Shown here: positions 9,363 to 51,114 of the stretch, piece after piece
How the letters are laid out: every line of letters begins with the position of its first letter
Numbering within the stretch: the first letter of the stretch is position 1
From: Alphaproteobacteria bacterium
Lineage (GTDB): Bacteria > Pseudomonadota > Alphaproteobacteria > GCA-2731375
Length of the DNA: 64,000 bases
NCBI GenBank assembly: GCA_965216645.1
Contig: CBDCGJ010000070.1
Span: 1-64,000 of the forward strand
Reading direction: 5' to 3'
Notes under the pieces: generated by a model
Told to the model about the DNA's origin: nothing
The model's database searches: none
Seen by the model: the letters and a program-made list of their open reading frames with translations, nothing else
Made by a program: the position numbers and the translations under genes

Positions 9363-10280
9363 ATGAAGAAGAGCTATTCGATCGGTATTCACGTACCCAG
9401 CGTTTCGGCCACCGGCCTCGCGGATGGCGCCGCCTATGCGGACTATTTCCGCCTGGTCGAGACGTTGGGTTTCGACGCCGTATGGGTGGAGGACCGAATC
9501 CTGCACCCGGCCCCCTTGGCGGATTCGCTAACTCTGTTGACCTGGGCCGCCGCGCATACCGAGCGCCTGGAGCTCGGCACGGCGGTCCTGGTCCTGAACC
9601 TGCGTCCGGCGCCGCTATTGGCGCGGCAGGTCGCGACCTTGCGGCATCTCGCCGGCGATCGGGTGACCTTGGGTGTGTCGCTGGGCGGGCGCGCCAACGA
9701 ATATGCTGCCCTGCGGCAGCCGATGGACAAGCGGGTCGGATTGTTTCGCGACGGTCTCGCGACCCTGCGCGCGCTGCTATCCGGTGACGAGATCACGCGG
9801 GACAGCACCTATTTCCCGCTTGACGGCGCCACCGTCCGCCCCGCCGGCCCCTTGCCGATCCTGATCGGCGGCTTGGCGCCGGCGGCGATCCGCCGCGCGG
9901 GGGAATTGGGCGACGGCTGGATCATGGGACCGTTCGGCGGATTGGAGGACATCGACAAGGGCCTTACGGAAGCCCGTGCCGGTGCCACCGCCGCCGGGAA
10001 GGTTCCGGACCAATTGCGTATCGGCCGGCTTCTTTATGTCGCCGTCGATCCCGACCGAGCCAAGGCGCAACGGGATATGACCGTCTTCCTTCACGGCTAT
10101 TACGGGAGCGACTTCGATGTCGACAAACATGCCATCATCGGTCCGGCGGCGGAGGTCGCGGATCGCCTGAAAGCACAGATGGACGCCGGTATCGGGACCC
10201 TGATGCTGGCCCCGCCGAATCTCGATCCGTCCTACATTCGCCGATTGGCCGACGAGGTTCTACCGGTCTTGCGCGGTTAG
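9363..10280 (+). CDS. LLM-class (luciferase-like) flavin-dependent oxidoreductase
   Basis: TIM-barrel LLM motifs (ETLGFDAVWVEDRIL...LGTAVLVLNLRPAPLLARQVATL...LGVSLGG). The start could be ATG 9351 or 9363. Confidence 0.7.
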   Translation: MKKSYSIGIHVPSVSATGLADGAAYADYFRLVETLGFDAVWVEDRILHPAPLADSLTLLTWAAAHTERLELGTAVLVLNLRPAPLLARQVATLRHLAGDRVTLGVSLGGRANEYAALRQPMDKRVGLFRDGLATLRALLSGDEITRDSTYFPLDGATVRPAGPLPILIGGLAPAAIRRAGELGDGWIMGPFGGLEDIDKGLTEARAGATAAGKVPDQLRIGRLLYVAVDPDRAKAQRDMTVFLHGYYGSDFDVDKHAIIGPAAEVADRLKAQMDAGIGTLMLAPPNLDPSYIRRLADEVLPVLRG

Positions 10281-11173
10281 CCCGCCGCCTTCCCGTTCCC
10301 CGCTTTCTCTTCTATTGGCACATGGTCCGGCACCAAGGTTTGCTCGTCCTTGGGCGGGCGGACGTAACCGACCGCATTTTCTCGCGGCGGCAACTCAACC
10401 GGCTCCGGGGTCAGGTCCTTATAGTCGAACATGCCGAGAAAATGGCTGATACAATTGAGGCGCGCGCGTTTCTTGACGTCCGCCTCCACCACATACCAGG
10501 GCGCCAGTTTGATATCCGTATGGGCGAACATGGCGTCCTTCGCCTTCGAGTAATCGATCCAGCGGCGGCGCGATTCCAAATCCATCGGGCTCAGTTTCCA
10601 GCGCTTGGTCGGGTCCGTAATGCGACCCTGGAAGCGCCGTTCCTGCTCTTCGTCGCTGACCGAAAACCAGTATTTGATCAGCTTGATGCCGGAGCGGATC
10701 AGCATCCGTTCGAACTCCGGACAGCTGCGCATGAATTCGGCGTATTCGTCGTCCGAACAGAAGCCCATGACGCGCTCGACCCCGGCGCGGTTATACCAAC
10801 TCCGATCGAATAGCACGATCTCGCCCGCCGCCGGCAGATGCGGCACGTAGCGCTGGAAATACCATTGGGTCTTCTCCCGCTCCGTCGGGGTGCCGAGCGC
10901 GACGACGCGGCAGACCCGAGGATTGAGCGACTGGGTGATCCGCTTGATGGTCCCGCCCTTGCCGGCGGCGTCGCGGCCTTCGAACAGCACCACCACTTTC
11001 AAGCCTTCGGCCTTCACCCATTCCTGCAGCTTGACCAACTCAATCTGCATTTTGGCGAGTTCGTGGTTATAGACCTTGTTGGAGATCTTCCGCGTGTCTC
11101 CCTTGATATCGGCACCGATCCGACGGCCTGCGGCTTTCTTCGCCGCAACATTTCCGGCTTCGCTGGCTGACAT
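10277..11173 (-). CDS. ppk2: polyphosphate kinase 2 (PPK2 family)
   Basis: VVLFEGRDAAGKGGTIKRI (Walker A), FDRSWYNRAGVERV and RWKLSPMDLESRRRWIDY are the PPK2 hallmarks. The track ORF starts at a GTG; the ATG at 11173 has GGAAGGGG upstream. Confidence 0.8.
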   Translation of the reverse strand: MSASEAGNVAAKKAAGRRIGADIKGDTRKISNKVYNHELAKMQIELVKLQEWVKAEGLKVVVLFEGRDAAGKGGTIKRITQSLNPRVCRVVALGTPTEREKTQWYFQRYVPHLPAAGEIVLFDRSWYNRAGVERVMGFCSDDEYAEFMRSCPEFERMLIRSGIKLIKYWFSVSDEEQERRFQGRITDPTKRWKLSPMDLESRRRWIDYSKAKDAMFAHTDIKLAPWYVVEADVKKRARLNCISHFLGMFDYKDLTPEPVELPPRENAVGYVRPPKDEQTLVPDHVPIEEKAGNGKAAG

Positions 11174-11423
11174 GATAACCCCTTCCCTGTTTGACACATT
11201 ATTCGACGACGCCGTATCTCACCGGTACGGCGGTCGCTGGTCTGGTTCGGTCGCTGGAAGAACGGGCGGCACGCGCCCGGTCAGGCTGAAATAATTTCAC
11301 AAATAATTAGAAACGAGTAATGCAAACGAACCGATTCCGGCGGAAAATTGCCGGAGGCGACGGTTAATCCTAACGCTTCTGCCGCGTGGACGCAAACCCA
11401 TGCAACCGCATTGATTGCCACGT

Positions 11424-11900: not shown

Positions 11901-12332
11901 TCAGTAAATCCCGTTGGCTTTTTGCAATTGCCGGACATAGACGATGATCTTACGGACCTCCACTTCGCGAATACCCTCCACCGGTGGCATGTCGCCGAAG
12001 CGCCAATGATGCCCGCGCACACCTAGCTTGGCGGCTCGCACGAAGGCGAAATCGCCATGATGATTGGGTTCGTAAATGCGATGGACCAACGGCGGGCCGG
12101 CGCCGTCCACCCCCGCCGCATGCTTGCCGTGACAACGCATGCAATTGCGCTCGAACAACATATGTCCGGCGACCGCGTCGCCGCTCAATTCCGGCACTTT
12201 GACGTTCACCAAGGATGGGCCGGTTTGCCCCGACGTCGCCGCATCCTCGGCCCAGGGCTGCCAGAGCCAAATAATAATAGCAGCAACGACAACCAAAGTA
12301 ATTCCAATTATGTAGATCGGCTTATTAAACAA
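11901..12332 (-). CDS. membrane-anchored class I c-type cytochrome
   Basis: N-terminal TM anchor, CMRCH heme motif, distal Met region (GDMPP). Confidence 0.6.
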   Translation of the reverse strand: MFNKPIYIIGITLVVVAAIIIWLWQPWAEDAATSGQTGPSLVNVKVPELSGDAVAGHMLFERNCMRCHGKHAAGVDGAGPPLVHRIYEPNHHGDFAFVRAAKLGVRGHHWRFGDMPPVEGIREVEVRKIIVYVRQLQKANGIY

Positions 12333-12463: not shown

Positions 12464-13291
12464 ATGACAACAGCCACGCCGACCGCGTTCGTCTTGGAAA
12501 GCGAACCGCCGCAATTGTCCGACGTCGACTTTACCGCCGCCGCGGTGGACGGCAAAAAATCCTATGACGACAGGCTAAAGACGTTGCGGAAACATATGCT
12601 GCAAATTCAACAGGCCTATTACCACCAGGGCCGCCGCGCCGTGATCGTCTTCGAAGGCTGGGACGCCGCCGGCAAGGGTGGGGCCATTCGCCGCCTCACC
12701 GCCGGGCTGGACCCGCGCGGCGTCCGGGTTCATCCGATCGGCGCGCCACGGGCGGAAAATCAGGCGCGGCACTATCTCTTCCGCTTTTTTCAGCGCCTGC
12801 CCACCGCTGGCCGGCTGGCGATTTTCGACCGCTCCTGGTACGGCCGGGTGCTGGTCGAACGGGTCGAAGGCTTCGCGGCGCCGGACGCGTGGCAGCGCGC
12901 CTATCAGGAGATCAACGAGTTCGAACGTCTGCTGATCGACGACGGCGCCCGGGTCATCAAGCTCTTCGTCCATATCACCAAGGACGAACAGCTAGCGCGC
13001 TTCGAACAACGCCTGCGCGATCCCGTGAAGCGCTGGAAACTGACGGAAGAGGATATTCGCAATCGCGAAAAATGGCCGGATTACGAAGCGGCGATCGACG
13101 ACATGTTCGCGCGGACCTCGACCCGCCGCGCGCCCTGGTGCCTGGTGCCCGGCAACAAGAAATGGTTCGCCCGCCTCGCCGTCCTCGAACATGTCACGGA
13201 ACGCCTGGCCGAGGGCGTCGATATCAGCCCGCCGCCGCTCGATCCGGAGATCATCCGGGCCGCGGAAGCGAAACTCGGCATTACGCTCTGA
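12464..13291 (+). CDS. ppk2: polyphosphate kinase 2 (PPK2 family), second paralogue
   Basis: VIVFEGWDAAGKGGAIRRL, FDRSWYGRVLVERV, RWKLTEEDIRNREKW. Paralogous to 10277..11173. Confidence 0.8.
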   Translation: MTTATPTAFVLESEPPQLSDVDFTAAAVDGKKSYDDRLKTLRKHMLQIQQAYYHQGRRAVIVFEGWDAAGKGGAIRRLTAGLDPRGVRVHPIGAPRAENQARHYLFRFFQRLPTAGRLAIFDRSWYGRVLVERVEGFAAPDAWQRAYQEINEFERLLIDDGARVIKLFVHITKDEQLARFEQRLRDPVKRWKLTEEDIRNREKWPDYEAAIDDMFARTSTRRAPWCLVPGNKKWFARLAVLEHVTERLAEGVDISPPPLDPEIIRAAEAKLGITL

Positions 13292-14134: not shown

Positions 14135-14380
14135 TTATGGAGCATCCCGCGACAGAAAGCCGGCGACGAAGGCGCTGAAGGCGTCGCGCATGGGTAGGTC
14201 GTGGTCGATCTTGATCTGCCGGCGCCTTGCGGTCACCGGTTTACCGGTTTTGCCGTCGACGGCCGCTTTCTCCACGCTTTGCCAGTAGAGCCCAATGCCT
14301 CGCTTCTGCCAGCGCGGCAGATCGTTGAAGTTGATCCCGCCTTTGGAAAACAGAAACTCGTTCTTGGCCGGAACGGACAT
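14135..14380 (-). pseudogene. remnant corresponding to the C-terminal ~80 aa of a Thg1-like tRNA(His) guanylyltransferase
   Basis: GGINFNDLPRWQKRGIGLYW resembles the C-terminal domain motif of bacterial Thg1-like proteins (recalled GINWNDYPxGxKRG). The ORF has no room for the ~160-aa catalytic N-domain; its 5' end abuts the repeat element at 14405. Confidence 0.35.
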
Positions 14381-14404
14381 ACCGTTCAGGATCGCCTGCG
14401 CCTC

Positions 14405-14575
14405 CTTAAAGGGGTCGGAGGGAATTAAAAAAGGGGTCGGAGGGAATTAATTTTGAGCCAGCGCACTGAACTTGAAAAAGGGGTCGGAGGGATTTAATTT
14501 TCAAAGATAGGATAAATTTCTTTTTTAATTTCAATGTGTTGACAAAAATTAAATCCCTCCGACCCCTTTTTGACC
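14405..14575. repeat. iteron-like repeat element: three direct and one inverted copy of a 20-mer around an AT-rich loop
   Basis: AAAGGGGTCGGAGGGA(A/T)TTAA occurs at ~14409, ~14431 and ~14478 in direct orientation and inverted at ~14549-14570. Copy 3 and the inverted copy form a ~27-bp perfect stem around a 46-nt loop containing TTGACA (<30% GC). Confidence 0.85.
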
Positions 14576-14831
14576 GAATGCGCGGTGGCGGGCGCGGCGT
14601 CTGACGTGACGGGAGAATATGTCGGCACAGGTCACTCGTGATCGGACTCATGGTGCGCACGATTATTTGCGCTTGACAATGCCCGTTCATTGCGGCATTT
14701 ACCGCGGCCCGGAAATTGGCCTGGGGCGACAGCGGCGCCGGTTCTGAACGCCGGCCCGGCGGCGCGACCTGAGATCGGTCGTGTCCGTATCGACGCTCCA
14801 CCGCGGTTTCCGTGACCCTGATCATCAGGTC

Positions 14832-14856
14832 GCGGGTTCGATTCCCGCCCCGGCCT
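14832..14856 (+). other. tRNA 3'-end fragment (T-arm plus acceptor 3' strand), followed by GCCA
   Basis: GCGGG-TTCGATT-CCCGC is a canonical T-arm, followed by CCCGGCC and T. No canonical D or anticodon arm was found upstream. Confidence 0.5.
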
Positions 14857-14860
14857 GCCA

Positions 14861-14946
14861 GGTCGGGTAGCTCAGCGGTTAGAGCGGATGAGGCTTTCAA
14901 GCCAACGACTCATAATCGTTTGCGGGTGAAATTCCCGCCCGGATCG
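14861..14946 (+). tRNA. tRNA-like sequence, probable pseudo-tRNA: canonical 5' acceptor plus D-arm, aberrant anticodon region and T-loop
   Basis: GGTCGGG-TA-GCTC-AGCGGTTA-GAGC is a textbook acceptor plus D-arm, and its acceptor strand is fully complementary to the CCCGGCC of the upstream fragment (U3-G70). Downstream are a 17-nt insert, an AACGA-CTCATAA-TCGTT hairpin (CAU in the anticodon position), a T-arm with the non-canonical loop TGAAATT, and an acceptor with one mismatch. Confidence 0.3.
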
Positions 14947-15244
14947 AGAGATCTTGAAAAAAAATGACGGGGGCGCCAGGTGTCCCGCCAAAGTGGTCGG
15001 CAAGGCCGGATTTTGATCCGGCGGCGGCGAATGCGGCGGCACGGCGGTCCGGACTTGAATGACGTTGGATACCGATGTCGACGGCGCGCGGACGCGCCGG
15101 CGGAAAAGCCATGGCCGTTTCGGCGGTCCGGCCAGACCGACCGGTGCGTGGCGCGGGCCCTCGGCGTCTCAAAGCGTCATCCTCCGGCCCGCCGCAAAGG
15201 ATACCTGGCAAACCTTGATTGGTAGAAATTGAATTGGAAGACGA

Positions 15245-16402
15245 GTGATTGGCATGAGAAAGACGATTTTGAAGCTATTGGGCTTCGACGAGATCGTCGT
15301 CGGACCCCAGCATCGGGCGATCGTGATGATCGACGGGAAGTTTGCGGAAATTCTCGAGCCGGGCCGACACTATCTGCGGCGCAGTCTGCGCGACCTGCGG
15401 ATACATCGGTCGGATGTCGAGATGGTGCGCTATGACGGCGACCATGAACAGACGCTGGTCCGGGACAATCCGCAATTGCTCGACAGCTATTTCGCGGTTG
15501 CCGACGTGGCCGACAATCAGATCGCTATCGTCACCGCCGACGGCAAGGTCCACGACACCCTGGCGCCGGGCCTCTACCGGCTGTACTGGAACGTGCTGAA
15601 GCGGATCGAGGTGGAGTTGGTCGACGTCGAGGCGAACTTCGAGGTCTCCGACACCCATGCCCGGAAGATGGCGCATCTGTTCAAGCACAATACCTTGTTG
15701 AGCTACAACCTAGTGCCGGACGGCCATGTCGGCCTGCTTTACGTCGACGGCAAGTTCGACCGGATCCTGCCGCCTGGGGCGCATGCCTTCTGGCGAGGTC
15801 AGCGGAAGATCGAGATGAGCTTGATCGACGGCCGGCTGCGGGAGAAGGAGATCGTCGGCCAGGAGGTGCTGACCAAAGACAAGGTCGGTATTCGGGTCAA
15901 CCTGACCTGCCACTACCGGATCGACGATCCGGTCAAGGTGGCGGGTGCCCTCGCCTCTCTGGACGACTATATGCACAAGTCCATCCAATTCGCGCTACGG
16001 GAAGCGGTCGGCCGCAATACGCTCGACGACATTCTCGACGGCAAGGACCGGCTTGACGCCGCCGTGCGCGAGGACGCGGCGGCGAAGTTCGAAGCCTATG
16101 GCGTGTCCCTGCACGATATCGGCGTGAAGGACGTGGTCCTGCCAGGCGATATGCGGGCGATCATGAACCAGGTGGTGCAGGCGGAAAAGGCGGCCCAGGC
16201 CAGCCTGATCCAGCGGCGGGAGGAAACCGCCGCCACCCGATCCCTGCTCAACACCGCCAAGCTGATGGACGACAACCCGACCCTGATGCGCCTCAAGGAG
16301 CTCGAGTCCCTGGAGCGGATCGTGGACAAGGTCGAAACCCTCAACGTCGTCGGCGGCCTAGACGGCGTGCTGAACGAGCTCGGCAAGCTGAAGACCGGTT
16401 GA
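15245..16402 (+). CDS. SPFH/band-7 (stomatin-prohibitin-flotillin-HflK/C) family protein
   Basis: Long SPFH-domain-like sequence with a C-terminal coiled coil (AEKAAQASLIQRREETAATRSLL...), from recall of the family pattern. An alternative start is at 15254. Confidence 0.65.
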   Translation: MIGMRKTILKLLGFDEIVVGPQHRAIVMIDGKFAEILEPGRHYLRRSLRDLRIHRSDVEMVRYDGDHEQTLVRDNPQLLDSYFAVADVADNQIAIVTADGKVHDTLAPGLYRLYWNVLKRIEVELVDVEANFEVSDTHARKMAHLFKHNTLLSYNLVPDGHVGLLYVDGKFDRILPPGAHAFWRGQRKIEMSLIDGRLREKEIVGQEVLTKDKVGIRVNLTCHYRIDDPVKVAGALASLDDYMHKSIQFALREAVGRNTLDDILDGKDRLDAAVREDAAAKFEAYGVSLHDIGVKDVVLPGDMRAIMNQVVQAEKAAQASLIQRREETAATRSLLNTAKLMDDNPTLMRLKELESLERIVDKVETLNVVGGLDGVLNELGKLKTG

Positions 16403-34127: not shown

Positions 34128-34360
34128 CTAGTTGCTCCGGAACGATGCGCGCCGGAGTTCCAATGGACATAGGTAGGGCAAAGTCGTAGCCCCCGTCGAC
34201 ACCGCATGTTTTAGATATTCATGCCAGCTCGCGCTAGGCACCGGCTCCTCCATACCATTGCACCGCCATCATCCCGGAATCGCGAGGGCGATGTCCGGGA
34301 TCATTTCGAACGCCGAGCCCGTGACGATCCCGGACATCGCCTGCGGCGATTCCGGGATGA

Positions 34361-35758
34361 TGGGATGGACCTTTCCCTCTTTCTTTGTCTCAAATGACGA
34401 CTTCTATGAGCCAGAGAGACAGATTTGAAAGGAGAAAGGCCCATGACGGAGATTAAATTGTTGAGCATCGATTTGGCAAAGAACATTTTTCACATTCACG
34501 GGACCGATGGGGCGGGCGAGACGGTGTTGGAGAAGAAACTGCGCCGCGCCGCTTTGAAGCGTTATCTGGCGGCCTTGCCGCCCTGTCGCATCGCCATGGA
34601 GAGCTGCGGCGGGGCGAACTATTGGGGCCGCTATTGCCAATCACTGGGCCATGAGGTGGTGCTGATCCATCCGCGCCGGGTGGCGATGTTTTTGGGCGCG
34701 CATAAGAGCGATACGCGGGACGCCCGCGCCATCACCACCGCGGCCAGGCAGCCGGACACACGGTTTATCCCGGTGAAGACGATGACGCAGCAGGACCTGG
34801 GCAGCCTCTTGCGCCTGCGCGAGGGCCTGCTCGGCCAGCGCACCGAGACGGTCAACCGGCTGCGCGGCCTGTTGGCCGAATACGGCCATGTCTACCCCAA
34901 AGGCCGGGCCCGCTTCTGCCGCCAGCTGCCGCTTTGGCTGGCCGAGCTCGAACTCGCTCCGGCGCTCCTGCGCGGCCTGGAAATGCAGGCACTGATGCTG
35001 CTCGAGATCGAGGCTCAGATCCGCGAACTCAACGGCCTGATCAAGGCTCAGCTGAAGGCCGACGAGCGCGCCCCGTGGCTGCTTTCGATCCCCGGCATCG
35101 GCCCCTTGACCGCCGCCGCCCTCATCGCCGCCGTCGACGATCCCGGCCTCTATGCCTCGGCCCGCATGTTCGCCGCCTGGCTCGGTCTGGTGCCCAGACA
35201 GCACGGCACCGGCGGGCGCACCCGATTGTTGCGCATCACCAAACGCGGCAACGCCCTGATCCGCAAATGGCTGGTCCAGGGCGCGCACAGCCTGATCACC
35301 GTCGCCGGCCGCCAGCAACAGCCGCGCAACCGGCTCGAGGCCTTCATCATGCGCAAGCGCGCCGAAAACCTCAATCGCAACGTCCTCGCCGTCGCCGTCG
35401 CCAACCGACTGGCCCGCATCGCCTGGGCCTGCCTGAGCAAACAAACCAGCTTCAATCCCGCCGGCTGAAGCTGACCACCGCCACGCAACCGAAACCACGA
35501 ACGAAACGCAAAAGACCAGCAAAACACAGCAGAAAAGGACAAACCCCATTCACCGCGAGAAGAAGACATGGCAGGACCGAGACCCGGGTCAGGACGGAGC
35601 GTCATCGACCAAAAAAGGTCGTCGGGATGATTGTACCGACCCGGGCCGCGATCGACCCATTCCGTCCAGGGCAACAAAACCCGCAAACAGGACGAATACA
35701 TGAGCGTGGGTCAAAGCCACAGTTTCTTCTTGCAAATCCGGAAAGGTCCATACATGAC
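34361..35758 (+). mobile_element. IS110-family insertion sequence, copy A (~1.4 kb), inserted after a CCGGGATGA REP-like hairpin
   Basis: Boundaries come from comparing the three copies and from an uninterrupted paralogous target at 51200-51215 (GATTCCGGGATGAC|GAGAAT). No terminal inverted repeats; the right end is ...GGTCCATACATGAC. Confidence 0.7.
34443..35468 (+). CDS. IS110-family transposase (DEDD-type)
   Basis: 341 aa; MTEIKLLSIDLAKNIFHIHG and ...IPGIGPLTAAALIAAVDDPGLY match the IS110/IS621 transposase family. AGGAG RBS. Confidence 0.85.
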   Translation: MTEIKLLSIDLAKNIFHIHGTDGAGETVLEKKLRRAALKRYLAALPPCRIAMESCGGANYWGRYCQSLGHEVVLIHPRRVAMFLGAHKSDTRDARAITTAARQPDTRFIPVKTMTQQDLGSLLRLREGLLGQRTETVNRLRGLLAEYGHVYPKGRARFCRQLPLWLAELELAPALLRGLEMQALMLLEIEAQIRELNGLIKAQLKADERAPWLLSIPGIGPLTAAALIAAVDDPGLYASARMFAAWLGLVPRQHGTGGRTRLLRITKRGNALIRKWLVQGAHSLITVAGRQQQPRNRLEAFIMRKRAENLNRNVLAVAVANRLARIAWACLSKQTSFNPAG

Positions 35759-35769
35759 GAGAATACAAA

Positions 35770-48473: not shown

Positions 48474-48735
48474 ATCGCATCCTCACCCGCGGCCCCAGGC
48501 CTGGCAAATCACGGCTGGGTGACGAATGCTTGACCGCGTCACCGCCGGCGGTCATAGCTTAGAGCATATATCTACCAGGCTGCCGAAAAAGTCGACACCG
48601 GCCCAATTTCTTTCAGTGTCATGCCGGAAACGGCGAAGCCGTTATCCGGTATCTCGGGCAGGATAGAGCGTCGTTTCGACAGCTTGCTCCATTCTACTCA
48701 AGATCCCGGATCGCGCTACGCTTGCCCGGGATGAT

Positions 48736-50132
48736 GGGATGGACCTTTCCCGCTTTCTATTCCTCAATGGACGGCTTCTAAGAGCCAGTGAGGTGGATTT
48801 GAAAGGAGAAAGGCCCATGACGGAGATTAGTTTGTTGAGCATCGATTTGGCAAAGAACATTTTTCACATTCACGGGACCGATGGGGCGGGCGAGACGGTG
48901 TTGGAGAAGAAACTGCGCCGCGCCGCTTTGAAGCGTTATCTGGCGGCCTTGCCGCCCTGTCGCATCGCCATGGAGAGCTGCGGCGGGGCGAACTATTGGG
49001 GCCGCTATTGCCAATCACTGGGCCATGAGGTGGTGCTGATCCATCCGCGCCGGGTGGCGATGTTTTTGGGCGCGCATAAGAGCGATACGCGGGACGCCCG
49101 CGCCATCACCACCGCGGCCAGGCAGCCGGACACACGGTTTATCCCGGTGAAGACGATGACGCAGCAGGACCTGGGCAGCCTCTTGCGCCTGCGCGAGGGC
49201 CTGCTCGGCCAGCGCACCGAGACGGTCAACCGGCTGCGCGGCCTGTTGGCCGAATACGGCCATGTCTACCCCAAAGGCCGGGCCCGCTTCTGCCGCCAGC
49301 TGCCGCTTTGGCTGGCCGAGCTCGAACTCGCTCCGGCGCTCCTGCGCGGCCTGGAAATGCAGGCACTGATGCTGCTCGAGATCGAGGCTCAGATCCGCGA
49401 ACTCGACGGCCTGATCAAGGCTCAGCTGAAGGCCGACGAGCGCGCCCCGTGGCTGCTTTCGATCCCCGGCATCGGCCCCTTGACCGCCGCCGCCCTCATC
49501 GCCGCCGTCGACGATCCCGGCCTCTATGCCTCGGCCCGCATGTTCGCCGCCTGGCTCGGTCTGGTGCCCAGACAGCACGGCACCGGCGGGCGCACCCGAT
49601 TGTTGCGCATCACCAAACGCGGCAACGCCCTGATCCGCAAATGGCTGGTCCAGGGCGCGCACAGCCTGATCACCGTCGCCGGCCGCCAGCAACAGCCGCG
49701 CAACCGGCTCGAGGCCTTCATCATGCGCAAGCGCGCCGAAAACCTCAATCGCAACGTCCTCGCCGTCGCCGTCGCCAACCGACTGGCCCGCATCGCCTGG
49801 GCCTGCCTGAGCAAACAAACCAGCTTCAATCCCGCCGGCTGAAGCTGACCACCGCCACGCAACCGAAACCACGAACGAAACGCAAAAGACCAGCAAAACA
49901 CAGCAGAAAAGGACAAACCCCATTCACCGCGAGAAGAAGACATGGCAGGACCGAGACCCGGGTCAGGACGGAGCGTCATCGACCAAAAAAGGTCGTCGGG
50001 ATGATTGTACCGACCCGGGCCGCGATCGACCCATTCCGTCCAGGGCAACAAAACCCGCAAACAGGACGAATACATGAGCGTGGGTCAAAGCCACAGTTTC
50101 TTCTTGCAAATCCGGAAAGGTCCATACATGAC
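48736..50132 (+). mobile_element. IS110-family IS, copy B (full length), inserted after a CCCGGGATGA REP-like motif
   Basis: Near-identical to copy A over the transposase (one N/D difference seen) and ~85-90% identical over the 5' UTR; the right end ...CATACATGAC lies at 50128-50132. Confidence 0.7.
48817..49842 (+). CDS. IS110-family transposase
   Basis: 341 aa, MTEISLLSIDLAKNIFHIHG...; the longer track ORF has an unsupported 5' extension. Confidence 0.85.
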   Translation: MTEISLLSIDLAKNIFHIHGTDGAGETVLEKKLRRAALKRYLAALPPCRIAMESCGGANYWGRYCQSLGHEVVLIHPRRVAMFLGAHKSDTRDARAITTAARQPDTRFIPVKTMTQQDLGSLLRLREGLLGQRTETVNRLRGLLAEYGHVYPKGRARFCRQLPLWLAELELAPALLRGLEMQALMLLEIEAQIRELDGLIKAQLKADERAPWLLSIPGIGPLTAAALIAAVDDPGLYASARMFAAWLGLVPRQHGTGGRTRLLRITKRGNALIRKWLVQGAHSLITVAGRQQQPRNRLEAFIMRKRAENLNRNVLAVAVANRLARIAWACLSKQTSFNPAG

Positions 50133-51114
50133 GCAGCAGGACCTGGGCAGCCTCTTGCGCCTGCGCGAGGGCCTGCTCGGCCAGCGCACCGAGACGGTCA
50201 ACCGGCTGCGCGGCCTGTTGGCCGAATACGGCCATGTCTACCCCAAAGGCCGGGCCCGCTTCTGCCGCCAGCTGCCGCTTTGGCTGGCCGAGCTCGAACT
50301 CGCTCCGGCGCTCCTGCGCGGCCTGGAAATGCAGGCACTGATGCTGCTCGAGATCGAGGCTCAGATCCGCGAACTCGACGGCCTGATCAAGGCTCAGCTG
50401 AAGGCCGACGAGCGCGCCCCGTGGCTGCTTTCGATCCCCGGCATCGGCCCCTTGACCGCCGCCGCCCTCATCGCCGCCGTCGACGATCCCGGCCTCTATG
50501 CCTCGGCCCGCATGTTCGCCGCCTGGCTCGGTCTGGTGCCCAGACAGCACGGCACCGGCGGGCGCACCCGATTGTTGCGCATCACCAAACGCGGCAACGC
50601 CCTGATCCGCAAATGGCTGGTCCAGGGCGCGCACAGCCTGATCACCGTCGCCGGCCGCCAGCAACAGCCGCGCAACCGGCTCGAGGCCTTCATCATGCGC
50701 AAGCGCGCCGAAAACCTCAATCGCAACGTCCTCGCCGTCGCCGTCGCCAACCGACTGGCCCGCATCGCCTGGGCCTGCCTGAGCAAACAAACCAGCTTCA
50801 ATCCCGCCGGCTGAAGCTGACCACCGCCACGCAACCGAAACCACGAACGAAACGCAAAAGACCAGCAAAACACAGCAGAAAAGGACAAACCCCATTCACC
50901 GCGAGAAGAAGACATGGCAGGACCGAGACCCGGGTCAGGACGGAGCGTCATCGACCAAAAAAGGTCGTCGGGATGATTGTACCGACCCGGGCCGCGATCG
51001 ACCCATTCCGTCCAGGGCAACAAAACCCGCAAACAGGACGAATACATGAGCGTGGGTCAAAGCCACAGTTTCTTCTTGCAAATCCGGAAAGGTCCATACA
51101 TGACGCGACCTCTC
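50133..51114 (+). mobile_element. IS110-family IS, copy C, 5'-truncated and fused directly to the right end of copy B
   Basis: The junction ...CATACATGAC|GCAGCAGGACCTGGGC matches the internal site GATGAC|GCAGCAGG of the full-length IS (copy A 34792-34804). The transposase remnant 50133..50814 lacks its first ~115 codons; right end is at 51110-51114. Confidence 0.7.

Follow-up and report, generated by a model that had tools for sequence, protein, structure and literature searches.

A tRNA mimic and a structured leader ahead of a slipin gene, next to a truncated Thg1-like gene, in an alphaproteobacterial contig

Overview of the locus

Does the crowded interval at positions 14135-14946 of contig CBDCGJ010000070.1 (assembly GCA_965216645.1) derive from a single rearranged element? 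A truncated gene for a Thg1-like protein (TLP), an AT-rich repeat cluster and several tRNA-like pieces lie side by side here, and a first-pass annotation had read them jointly as a rearrangement hotspot with iterons or the debris of an attachment (att) site. In the following, the window refers to the whole stretch of 64,000 nt that was analyzed (GC content 61%); the studied interval was followed rightward to position 16402. All three anomalies exist in the sequence, but to read them together as iterons or att debris is mostly mistaken. What had passed for tRNA debris begins a conserved predicted non-coding RNA that carries no annotation, comprising a tRNA mimic and a long structured leader, ahead of a gene encoding a slipin of the RNA-repair type. 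The conserved non-coding unit extends over ~520 nt (approximately 14725-15245), consists of the tRNA mimic, accessory hairpins and a rod-like leader, and precedes the slipin gene. The interval as a whole is probably the junction of two histories, with the mimic-leader-slipin unit to the right and a TLP stub and a captured repeat to the left, rather than a single element.

A circularly permuted tRNA mimic

The segment 14822-14891 is a circularly permuted tRNA that lacks the anticodon loop alone, with a closing helix in place of the anticodon stem. The acceptor 3' strand and the T-arm (14832-14855) come first and are followed 5 nt later by the acceptor 5' strand and the D-arm (14861-14885). The parts are as follows:

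14822-14891 (+): circularly permuted tRNA mimic of the YrlA type (Rfam, 14-part template)
14822-14826 / 14887-14891 (+): closing helix UCAUC/GAUGA, 5 bp
between the 5' strand of the closing helix and the T-arm (+): variable loop AGGUC (sequence reading)
14832-14848 (+): canonical T-arm, GCGGG UUCGAUU CCCGC
14849-14867 (+): loop-closed acceptor hairpin CCCGGCC-UGCCA-GGUCGGG, 7 bp
14870-14885 (+): D-arm GCUC AGCGGUUA GAGC, preceded by UA and followed by G and then GAUGA

The tRNA 3' fragment (T-arm and acceptor strand) of the first-pass annotation is thus present at 14832-14855. Its acceptor/D-arm (14861-14885) and its odd T-loop (14922-14938) were also recovered, whereas the anticodon region described as corrupted is a clean 5-bp stem with the 7-nt loop CUCAUAA at 14904-14920. 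The pieces do not support a reading as attachment-site debris: they match the permuted YrlA template part for part, and the closing and acceptor helices covary. When a 14-part template of the permuted module was compared across the window and four other loci (L174, L048, L173 and L175), the window and the stand-alone plasmid copy L174 both fitted with 0 mismatches, the helices of the metagenomic L048 were fully paired with a 6-bp acceptor, and two YrlAs showed 1-2 mismatches in the closing helix. Both the helices that close the module (UCAUC/GAUGA, GCCGA/UCGGC and UCUUG/CAAGA) and the acceptor hairpins differ in sequence with the pairing kept.

The Rfam model of YrlA (RF02553; Chen et al. 2014, PMC4201824) matched 14824-14891 with 41.6 bits (E=1e-7; model positions 23-87 of 114), which is below its gathering score of 69. 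A canonical tRNA had been proposed as a check on this region; ARAGORN reported no tRNA or tmRNA gene at the locus, and the Rfam tRNA model reached 34.1 bits (gathering score 29) for 14861-14946 only by skipping a 25-nt insertion. No canonical cloverleaf was found at 14861-14946, where the T-loop reads UGAAAUU, one acceptor pair is mismatched and the variable region comprises a single nucleotide; the homologue L172 lacks the 3' acceptor strand. The thermodynamic fold of 14780-14965 alone did not return the tRNA-like fold. A tmRNA was also considered and rejected, since the model gave 19 bits (gathering score 47), ARAGORN was negative and the D-arm is canonical.

A comparison of 14700-15250 with 72,556 plasmids gave matches in 15 records only, exactly on the permuted module. 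The two matches examined, from Rhizobium leguminosarum and Shinella, are located between a 518-aa gene in the Ro/Rsr position, annotated merely as "RNA-binding protein" or "hypothetical protein", and rtcB, beside an RtcR-type activator. The Rhizobium and Shinella YrlAs are full-length and score 64 bits with Rfam, and the module of the window is ~80% identical to them. On the R. leguminosarum plasmid, L173 3960-4640 holds approximately five tandem Y-RNA-like modules between the Ro-position gene and rtcB, each beginning GNCGAAUGC, two of which were detected by Rfam. The stand-alone copy, L174 1560-1680 on a 9.6-kb plasmid of Gluconobacter sphaericus, combines a 5-bp closing helix with an intrinsic terminator of its own and lies beside an IS5 transposase, with no Ro, Rtc or slipin gene nearby. 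Scanning metagenomes with a DNA pattern of the permuted tRNA gave five matches, of which four were ordinary tandem tRNA genes and the remaining one was L048; this locus was found solely by the pattern, yet a slipin homologue lies directly downstream. Two viral-contig pattern scans returned mostly tRNA arrays or chance matches, and a phage collection gave no match.

The mimic shares with YrlA the permuted order of variable loop, T-arm, loop-closed acceptor stem, UA and D-arm, the helix replacing the anticodon arm, and an occurrence in RNA-repair gene neighborhoods. YrlA is defined with a GNCGAAN0-1G motif, a Ro-binding stem formed from the 5' and 3' ends and a Ro gene nearby (PMC4201824). No such motif was found in the 100 nt upstream of the module and no Ro-binding 5'/3' stem around it, and no TROVE (Ro60/Rsr) gene was found within 4 kb or among the open reading frames (ORFs) of 450-550 aa in the window; this 4-kb range holds genes for PPK2, PhyH, the TLP stub, the slipin, a 138-aa ORF and an RND pump. 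The sole match to the Y-RNA 5' motif, GGCGAAUG, is at 15026-15034, 135 nt downstream of the mimic and inside the slipin leader, and Rfam detected no second Y-like RNA around it. Because motif, stem and nearby Ro gene are all absent, the mimic is a YrlA-like module but no member of YrlA, from which it also differs in the additional hairpins, second T-arm and ~285-nt leader that come after it, and in its linkage to a slipin.

The structured leader

The mimic and its accessory hairpins are followed by a leader with a predicted structure of its own:

14960-15245 (+): structured leader of ~285 nt, with an outer closing helix, a 5' hairpin and a long imperfect rod

A consensus structure was obtained with RNAalifold from the window, L170 and L172, and covariation was tested on the structure predicted from this same alignment. 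Pairing was possible in 88% of the cells compared with ~40% in slid controls, and 49 pairs were changed on both sides compared with 6-10 in slid controls; the observed values were reached in 0 of 500 shuffles. Conserved unpaired motifs, e.g., GGAUACCG and CUCAAnGCG, are found within the leader. Minimum free energy folds of single sequences gave the same architecture, with z=-4.6 for the window, -5.2 for L172, -5.2 for L176 and -6.5 for Burkholderia, L170 being weaker at z=-1.6. A covariance model of the window clade (R1) matched the leader of Subdoligranulum (E=4e-8); with default filters it did not recover the leaders of L176, L048 and Burkholderia. No Rfam family matches the leader, and our literature searches found no published description of a tRNA-like leader or of a slipin/SPFH protein together with a tRNA-like RNA.

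The slipin gene and its relatives in RNA-repair operons

The gene at the right end of the unit is:

15245-16402 (+): slipin-family SPFH protein gene (Pfam Band_7)

No N-terminal hydrophobic segment was seen in the slipin by eye (no membrane-segment prediction was run). PADLOC gave no defense-system match for the slipin, the neighboring ORF or the TLP stub, and the ORF after the slipin, which is encoded on the other strand, gave no match in Pfam. The closest relatives are 49-53% identical, and their upstream non-coding DNA aligns with the window. Slipin homologues located in Rtc RNA-repair loci share 35-41% identity with the slipin of the window, which is a member of the clade that occurs in Rtc RNA-repair operons. 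The following arrangements were observed:

Burkholderia cenocepacia (L185): RtcR, then slipin-RtcB-RlaP
Photobacterium (L189): RtcR, then slipin-RtcB
Citrobacter freundii (L186): rtcR, then slipin-RlaP
Subdoligranulum (L188): slipin-RtcB-RlaP
Escherichia coli (L187, L190): slipin-RlaP island with a sigma-54-type promoter

T-arm-bearing elements precede slipin genes in at least seven lineages. A strict T-arm (5-bp stem and UUCRANN) was present 190-490 nt upstream of the slipin in 11 of 14 loci, compared with a background of 10 per 713 kb (~0.01 per 700 nt); in two more loci, L186 and L187, the T-arm has 4 bp, with a compensatory change in the adjoining hairpin. In Burkholderia, a minihelix and a tRNA-like fold with GAAA for the anticodon loop are followed by a leader of the same architecture, in Photobacterium two tRNA-like genes lie between the sigma-54-type promoter and the slipin start codon, and in both Burkholderia and Citrobacter the tRNA-like elements are located between rtcR and the slipin. 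The E. coli leader occurs at full length in 1629 of the 5426 complete genomes of this species, and at this position the RefSeq record that was inspected has no RNA feature annotated. The E. coli island lies between yjbD and lysC, with the T-arm-containing leader at L187 3462-3992 and L190 2494-3022. An SPFH gene embedded in the rtc locus of Pseudomonas aeruginosa (PMC13086221) and the slipin alr0740 of Anabaena, which is co-derepressed with rtcB and a tRNA operon (PMC10272220), have been described; neither paper mentions a tRNA-like leader.

Other parts of the conserved unit

The remaining parts of the unit, and the spacer that separates it from the repeat cluster, are:

14572-14724 (+): non-conserved spacer; similarity to L170 begins at 14731
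14725-14821 (+): conserved 5' part of the unit (blastn against L170, alignment A1)
14737-14755 (+): T-arm-like hairpin GCCGG-UUCUGAACG-CCGGC, in the conserved 5' part
14768-14778 (+): conserved block CCUGAGAUCGG, in the conserved 5' part
14892-14946 (+): accessory hairpins, which together with 14861-14891 make up the region scored by Rfam as a weak tRNA
14892-14903 (+): GGCUUUCAAGCC, in the accessory hairpin region
14904-14920 (+): anticodon-arm-like AACGA-CUCAUAA-UCGUU, 5-bp stem and 7-nt loop
14922-14938 (+): second T-arm with a non-canonical loop, GCGGG-UGAAAUU-CCCGC (sequence reading)

By blastn, window positions 14731-14848 match L170 9557-9663 with 70% identity over 118 nt (E=2e-11). The composite upstream element is kept next to slipin homologues that share 36-53% protein identity (L172, L170/L171 and L048). 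Upstream of the slipin in L172 there is a T-arm, an acceptor hairpin CCCGGC-GCUA-GCCGGG, a D-arm, a spacer of ~15 nt, a hairpin with a 7-nt loop and a second T-arm, with no 3' acceptor strand; in L170/L171 the 5' hairpin, the block CCUGAGAUCGG and a T-arm plus hairpin are kept. Between the tRNA-like part and the leader, 14958-14978 resembles a terminator when read on the minus strand (a hairpin and then T8), at a place where no gene of that strand ends; in the plus direction the same positions are an A8 purine-rich linker. The spacer contains a weak sigma-70-like candidate, read from the sequence (TTGACA at 14674-14679, 17 nt, CATTTA).

The TLP stub and the repeat cluster

To the left of the unit, the window holds the following features:

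14135-14407 (-): C-terminal remnant of a TLP tRNA 5'-end repair gene (ORF 14135-14380; homology continues to 14407)
14408-14571 (no strand): cluster of four half-sites of a probable REP-type extragenic palindrome (sequence repeats, DNA fold)
14408-14428, 14430-14450 and 14477-14497 (+): half-sites, 21-nt unit
14549-14569 (-): half-site, 21-nt unit

The 81-aa ORF at 14135-14380 was correctly recognized at the outset as a C-terminal Thg1-like segment. It covers positions 36-89 of 116 in the Pfam Thg1C profile (E=3e-7), and its domain is clearly homologous to that of metagenomic TLPs, bacterial tRNA 5'-end repair enzymes (46-54% identity to P0002-P0012). All of these relatives extend N-terminally with a conserved segment (VDYFRWR...NALN..CYW) that is missing here, which identifies the ORF as a truncation. 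No catalytic N-terminal Thg1 domain (PF04446) or other TLP piece was found anywhere in the window by tblastn and domain searches. The stub keeps ~90 of roughly 250 residues and cannot be an active enzyme, since the catalytic domain is missing. Likewise, no RtcB or kinase piece was found in the window. In L044, the TLP homologue stands at the end of an RtcB - AAA_33 kinase - Thg1 cassette, and in L042/L043 the N-terminus of the kinase is fused to a similarly truncated Thg1C, a second decayed kinase/TLP deletion fusion. Because this cassette and this fusion show similar genes and similar damage, the stub is read as the leftover of an RNA-repair cassette that is prone to repeated decay. Damaged TLP genes were also seen on other metagenomic contigs, i.e., at L044 2209-2973 (in-frame TAG between Thg1 and Thg1C) and at L042 6389-6971 (kinase-TLP fusion). 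No orthologous intact locus was recovered, because the synteny on the side of the left neighbor PhyH is not conserved in the relatives L038-L041.

The tblastn alignments of the TLP homologues all stop at 14404-14407, and the first repeat copy begins with the very next base, 14408. Four exact copies of the 16-nt core AAAGGGGTCGGAGGGA are present, in direct orientation at 14408, 14430 and 14477 (+) and inverted at 14554 (-), as had been claimed, and no further copy was found in the 64 kb at ≤2 mismatches (0.04 expected by chance). The stem reported around a TTGACA loop is also real: the last two half-sites form a 27-bp stem (14475-14501 / 14545-14571) with 100% complementary arms and a 43-nt loop containing TTGACA, and the cluster folds as DNA at z=-5.3. 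Its GC content is 38% compared with 61% for the window, and the flanking genes on both sides have a GC content at third codon positions (GC3) of 0.78-0.85. The rearrangement that was suspected is therefore borne out, with the TLP gene cut exactly where the compositionally foreign repeats begin; the att or iteron meaning given to it is not.

Within the window the repeat is specific to this locus, but when one genome per species was scanned with AAAGGGGTCGGAGGGAWTTAA, 37 loci were found, all of them in Pseudohongiellaceae, uncultured Pseudomonadales or related gammaproteobacterial metagenome-assembled genomes (MAGs) of ~45-53% GC. In these MAGs the repeat forms a tight palindrome, AAAGGGGTCGGAGGGATTTAA-n-TTAAATCCCTCCGACCCCTTT, at times with extra half-sites, and 45 of 46 clusters are intergenic, i.e., outside any open frame of 150 codons. 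In Pseudohongiellaceae the repeat is thus a dispersed extragenic palindrome of the REP type, and it also resembles a bidirectional terminator hairpin because A and T runs flank it. It shares with REP/REPIN-type palindromes the ~21-nt unit, the tight palindromes and half-site arrays, and the dispersed, intergenic distribution where it is common, and differs in occupying a single place in the window, in a genome of another class and GC content, and in that the palindrome here is split by the 43-nt AT-rich loop. Apart from the repeat, the window has nothing in common with the gammaproteobacterial repeat loci, and its PhyH is 80% identical to the homologue of the alphaproteobacterium Microbaculum. 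Judging from sequence identity, the 165-bp repeat cluster is probably foreign DNA captured at a deletion breakpoint.

Alternative explanations

The tRNA pieces could instead be the remains of tandem tRNA genes, or of the integration of a tRNA-targeted island at an att site, with the slipin cassette as cargo beside tRNA genes. The YrlA model is documented to pick up tandem tRNA genes as false positives (PMC4201824), and two abutting tRNA genes occupy the equivalent place in L176. The slipin unit is also accessory and mobile, being flanked by insertion sequences in L170 and carrying the full leader in the fraction of complete E. coli genomes given above, and the window has a 19-nt direct repeat of the T-arm (14832-14850 / 14922-14940). 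This T-arm repeat is the sole one, however, and its two copies are only 90 nt apart with no island between them. The initial statement that the window has no integrase or Rep gene held for the neighboring ORFs tested, although IS110-family mobile-element genes are present at 34-51 kb. As the perfect 5-bp closing helix and the 7-bp acceptor hairpin covary across unrelated loci, the composite persists at 36-53% protein identity of the neighboring gene, and the elements lie inside a sigma-54 transcription unit in Photobacterium and between rtcR and slipin in Burkholderia and Citrobacter, we consider such an origin unlikely. That the mimic is an ordinary YrlA Y RNA acting with a Ro60/Rsr protein encoded elsewhere in the genome would agree with the Rfam match, with the ~80% identity to Rhizobium and Shinella genes and with the GGCGAAUG motif at 15026-15034. 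Against this, the score is below the gathering threshold with only model positions 23-87 aligned, the GNCGAA motif and the 5'/3' stem are absent, neither the 4-kb surroundings nor the tested ORFs include a TROVE gene, and the conserved neighbor of the mimic is a slipin, not Ro, which makes a conventional Y RNA highly unlikely. The repeat cluster, in turn, might be an artifact of metagenome assembly, or an element that functions locally, as iterons, as integrase arm sites or as operators, and not captured foreign DNA. The contig apparently comes from a single assembly of 116.5 kb, all four half-sites agree over their entire 16-nt core with the gammaproteobacterial repeat, whose host genomes could co-occur in the sample, and direct and inverted copies at 22- and 47-bp spacing have the look of a binding-site array. 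A chimeric join would not be expected to show equal GC and GC3 on both flanks and TLP homology that ends exactly at the first half-site. As to iterons and integrase arm sites, no Rep or integrase gene was found among the neighboring ORFs tested, the 21-mer is not locus-specific, and half-site arrays and palindromes of the same kind are present in gammaproteobacterial genomes (e.g., L004 and L034), so that both versions appear quite improbable.

Several observations weigh against the interpretation of the locus as an expressed mimic-leader-slipin unit beside a captured repeat. A promoter scan of the locus gave no convincing promoter, and no match to the sigma-54 promoter (TGGCAC-N5-TTGC) was found near it; expression and co-transcription of the unit in the window are accordingly only presumed from the sequence. 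RtcB had no match in the window, RtcR was absent among the window ORFs tested and RlaP was likewise not found in the window, and the copy studied here may therefore be a relic. The two tRNA genes of L176 look like real tRNA genes; one of these, the tRNA-like gene at L176 861-935, has an 8-nt anticodon loop (four-base anticodon AGAA according to ARAGORN), abuts tRNA-Ile(GAU) and lies upstream of the slipin homologue. The close comparative set for the leader is small (3-4 independent leaders), and the structure on which covariation was counted came from the alignment itself. The tRNA-like parts vary by lineage, from a permuted module to tandem tRNA genes, a minihelix, or a T-arm with a hairpin, and since they differ, a single function for all of them is an assumption. 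The origin assigned to the repeat cluster is judged from sequence identity, and the cluster may also be a native low-copy family or a misassembly.

Comparison with known systems and possible function

The closest parallel to the slipin loci is the rsr-yrlBA-rtcBA operon of Salmonella, controlled by RtcR and sigma-54 (PMC7790460), where tRNA-mimic RNAs are likewise found within or ahead of an RNA-repair operon; the loci of the slipin homologues similarly contain RtcR, RtcB and RlaP, with the slipin in the first-gene position of Rsr and, ahead of it, one or two tRNA-like elements and a long structured leader. The window resembles the rtcR / slipin-rtcB-rlaP operons in that its slipin is preceded by tRNA-like elements and a long structured leader, but it differs from these, as well as from the Salmonella operon, in lacking RtcR (among the ORFs tested), a sigma-54 promoter and downstream RtcB, RtcA or RlaP. 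Tandem or circularly permuted tRNA genes (PMC3978253) and the two-piece tmRNA genes of Alphaproteobacteria share with the mimic that the tRNA 3' half is encoded before the 5' half, with complementary acceptor strands. Unlike permuted tRNA genes, the mimic has no anticodon loop, is negative with ARAGORN and gives no indication of circularization or processing to a decoding tRNA, and unlike two-piece tmRNA it has a canonical tRNA-type D-arm and an acceptor U3-G70 instead of G3-U70.

The window thus probably holds a stripped-down unit of two parts, the RNA and the slipin, without RtcR, RtcB and RlaP. We infer that a leftward RtcB-kinase-TLP cassette once faced the rightward mimic-leader-slipin unit, and that a deletion took all but the tail of the TLP gene, leaving the repeat cluster at the scar. 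The mimic would be transcribed together with the slipin leader. The tRNA-like domains of YrlA bear tRNA modifications and undergo cleavage by RNase P (PMC4201824), and the mimic might similarly be recognized by enzymes that handle tRNA, such as RNase P, modification enzymes and the CCA-adding enzyme. It could then serve as an RNA partner, a bait or a processing signal for a slipin branch of the response to damaged tRNA, which is known to activate RtcR (PMC7790460).

By analogy with Ro60 and its Y RNAs, we tentatively suggest, as a possibility less likely than not, that the slipins of Rtc loci have a dedicated and widespread RNA partner consisting of a tRNA mimic and a rod RNA of ~250-300 nt, of which the window would hold the minimal version, RNA plus slipin. 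If so, this RNA would occur in Firmicutes as well as in Alpha-, Beta- and Gammaproteobacteria, with ~30% of the complete genomes of E. coli among its carriers, and yet be missing from Rfam and from the annotations examined. Bacterial tRNA mimics of the Y-RNA kind have so far been defined by their link to Ro60; the same mimic occurs here without Ro, fused to a structured RNA and coupled to a slipin whose relatives occupy the first position in RtcR/RtcB/RlaP repair operons of several phyla. If expressed, the RNA would offer a handle on the role of the unexplained SPFH protein in rtc loci and a candidate RNA family for annotation (approximately 1600 complete E. coli genomes carry a related leader), and would bear on how cells sense or bait tRNA damage. 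The captured repeat, in turn, would indicate that the scar of a deletion in one bacterial class may bear a repeat that is native to a different class.

Two further features of the window lie outside the unit. IS110-family copies were found at 34352-35759, 48726-50133 and 50128-51106, one of them a tandem partial copy; they are 98.9-100% identical and encode a transposase with PF01548 and PF02371. These three near-identical copies therefore indicate a genome with recently active mobile elements, none of which is located at the studied locus. In addition, two PPK2 polyphosphate kinase genes, at 10277-11197 (-) and 12464-13291 (+), are located on either side of a small cytochrome c gene at 11901-12332, a short way upstream of the studied locus.

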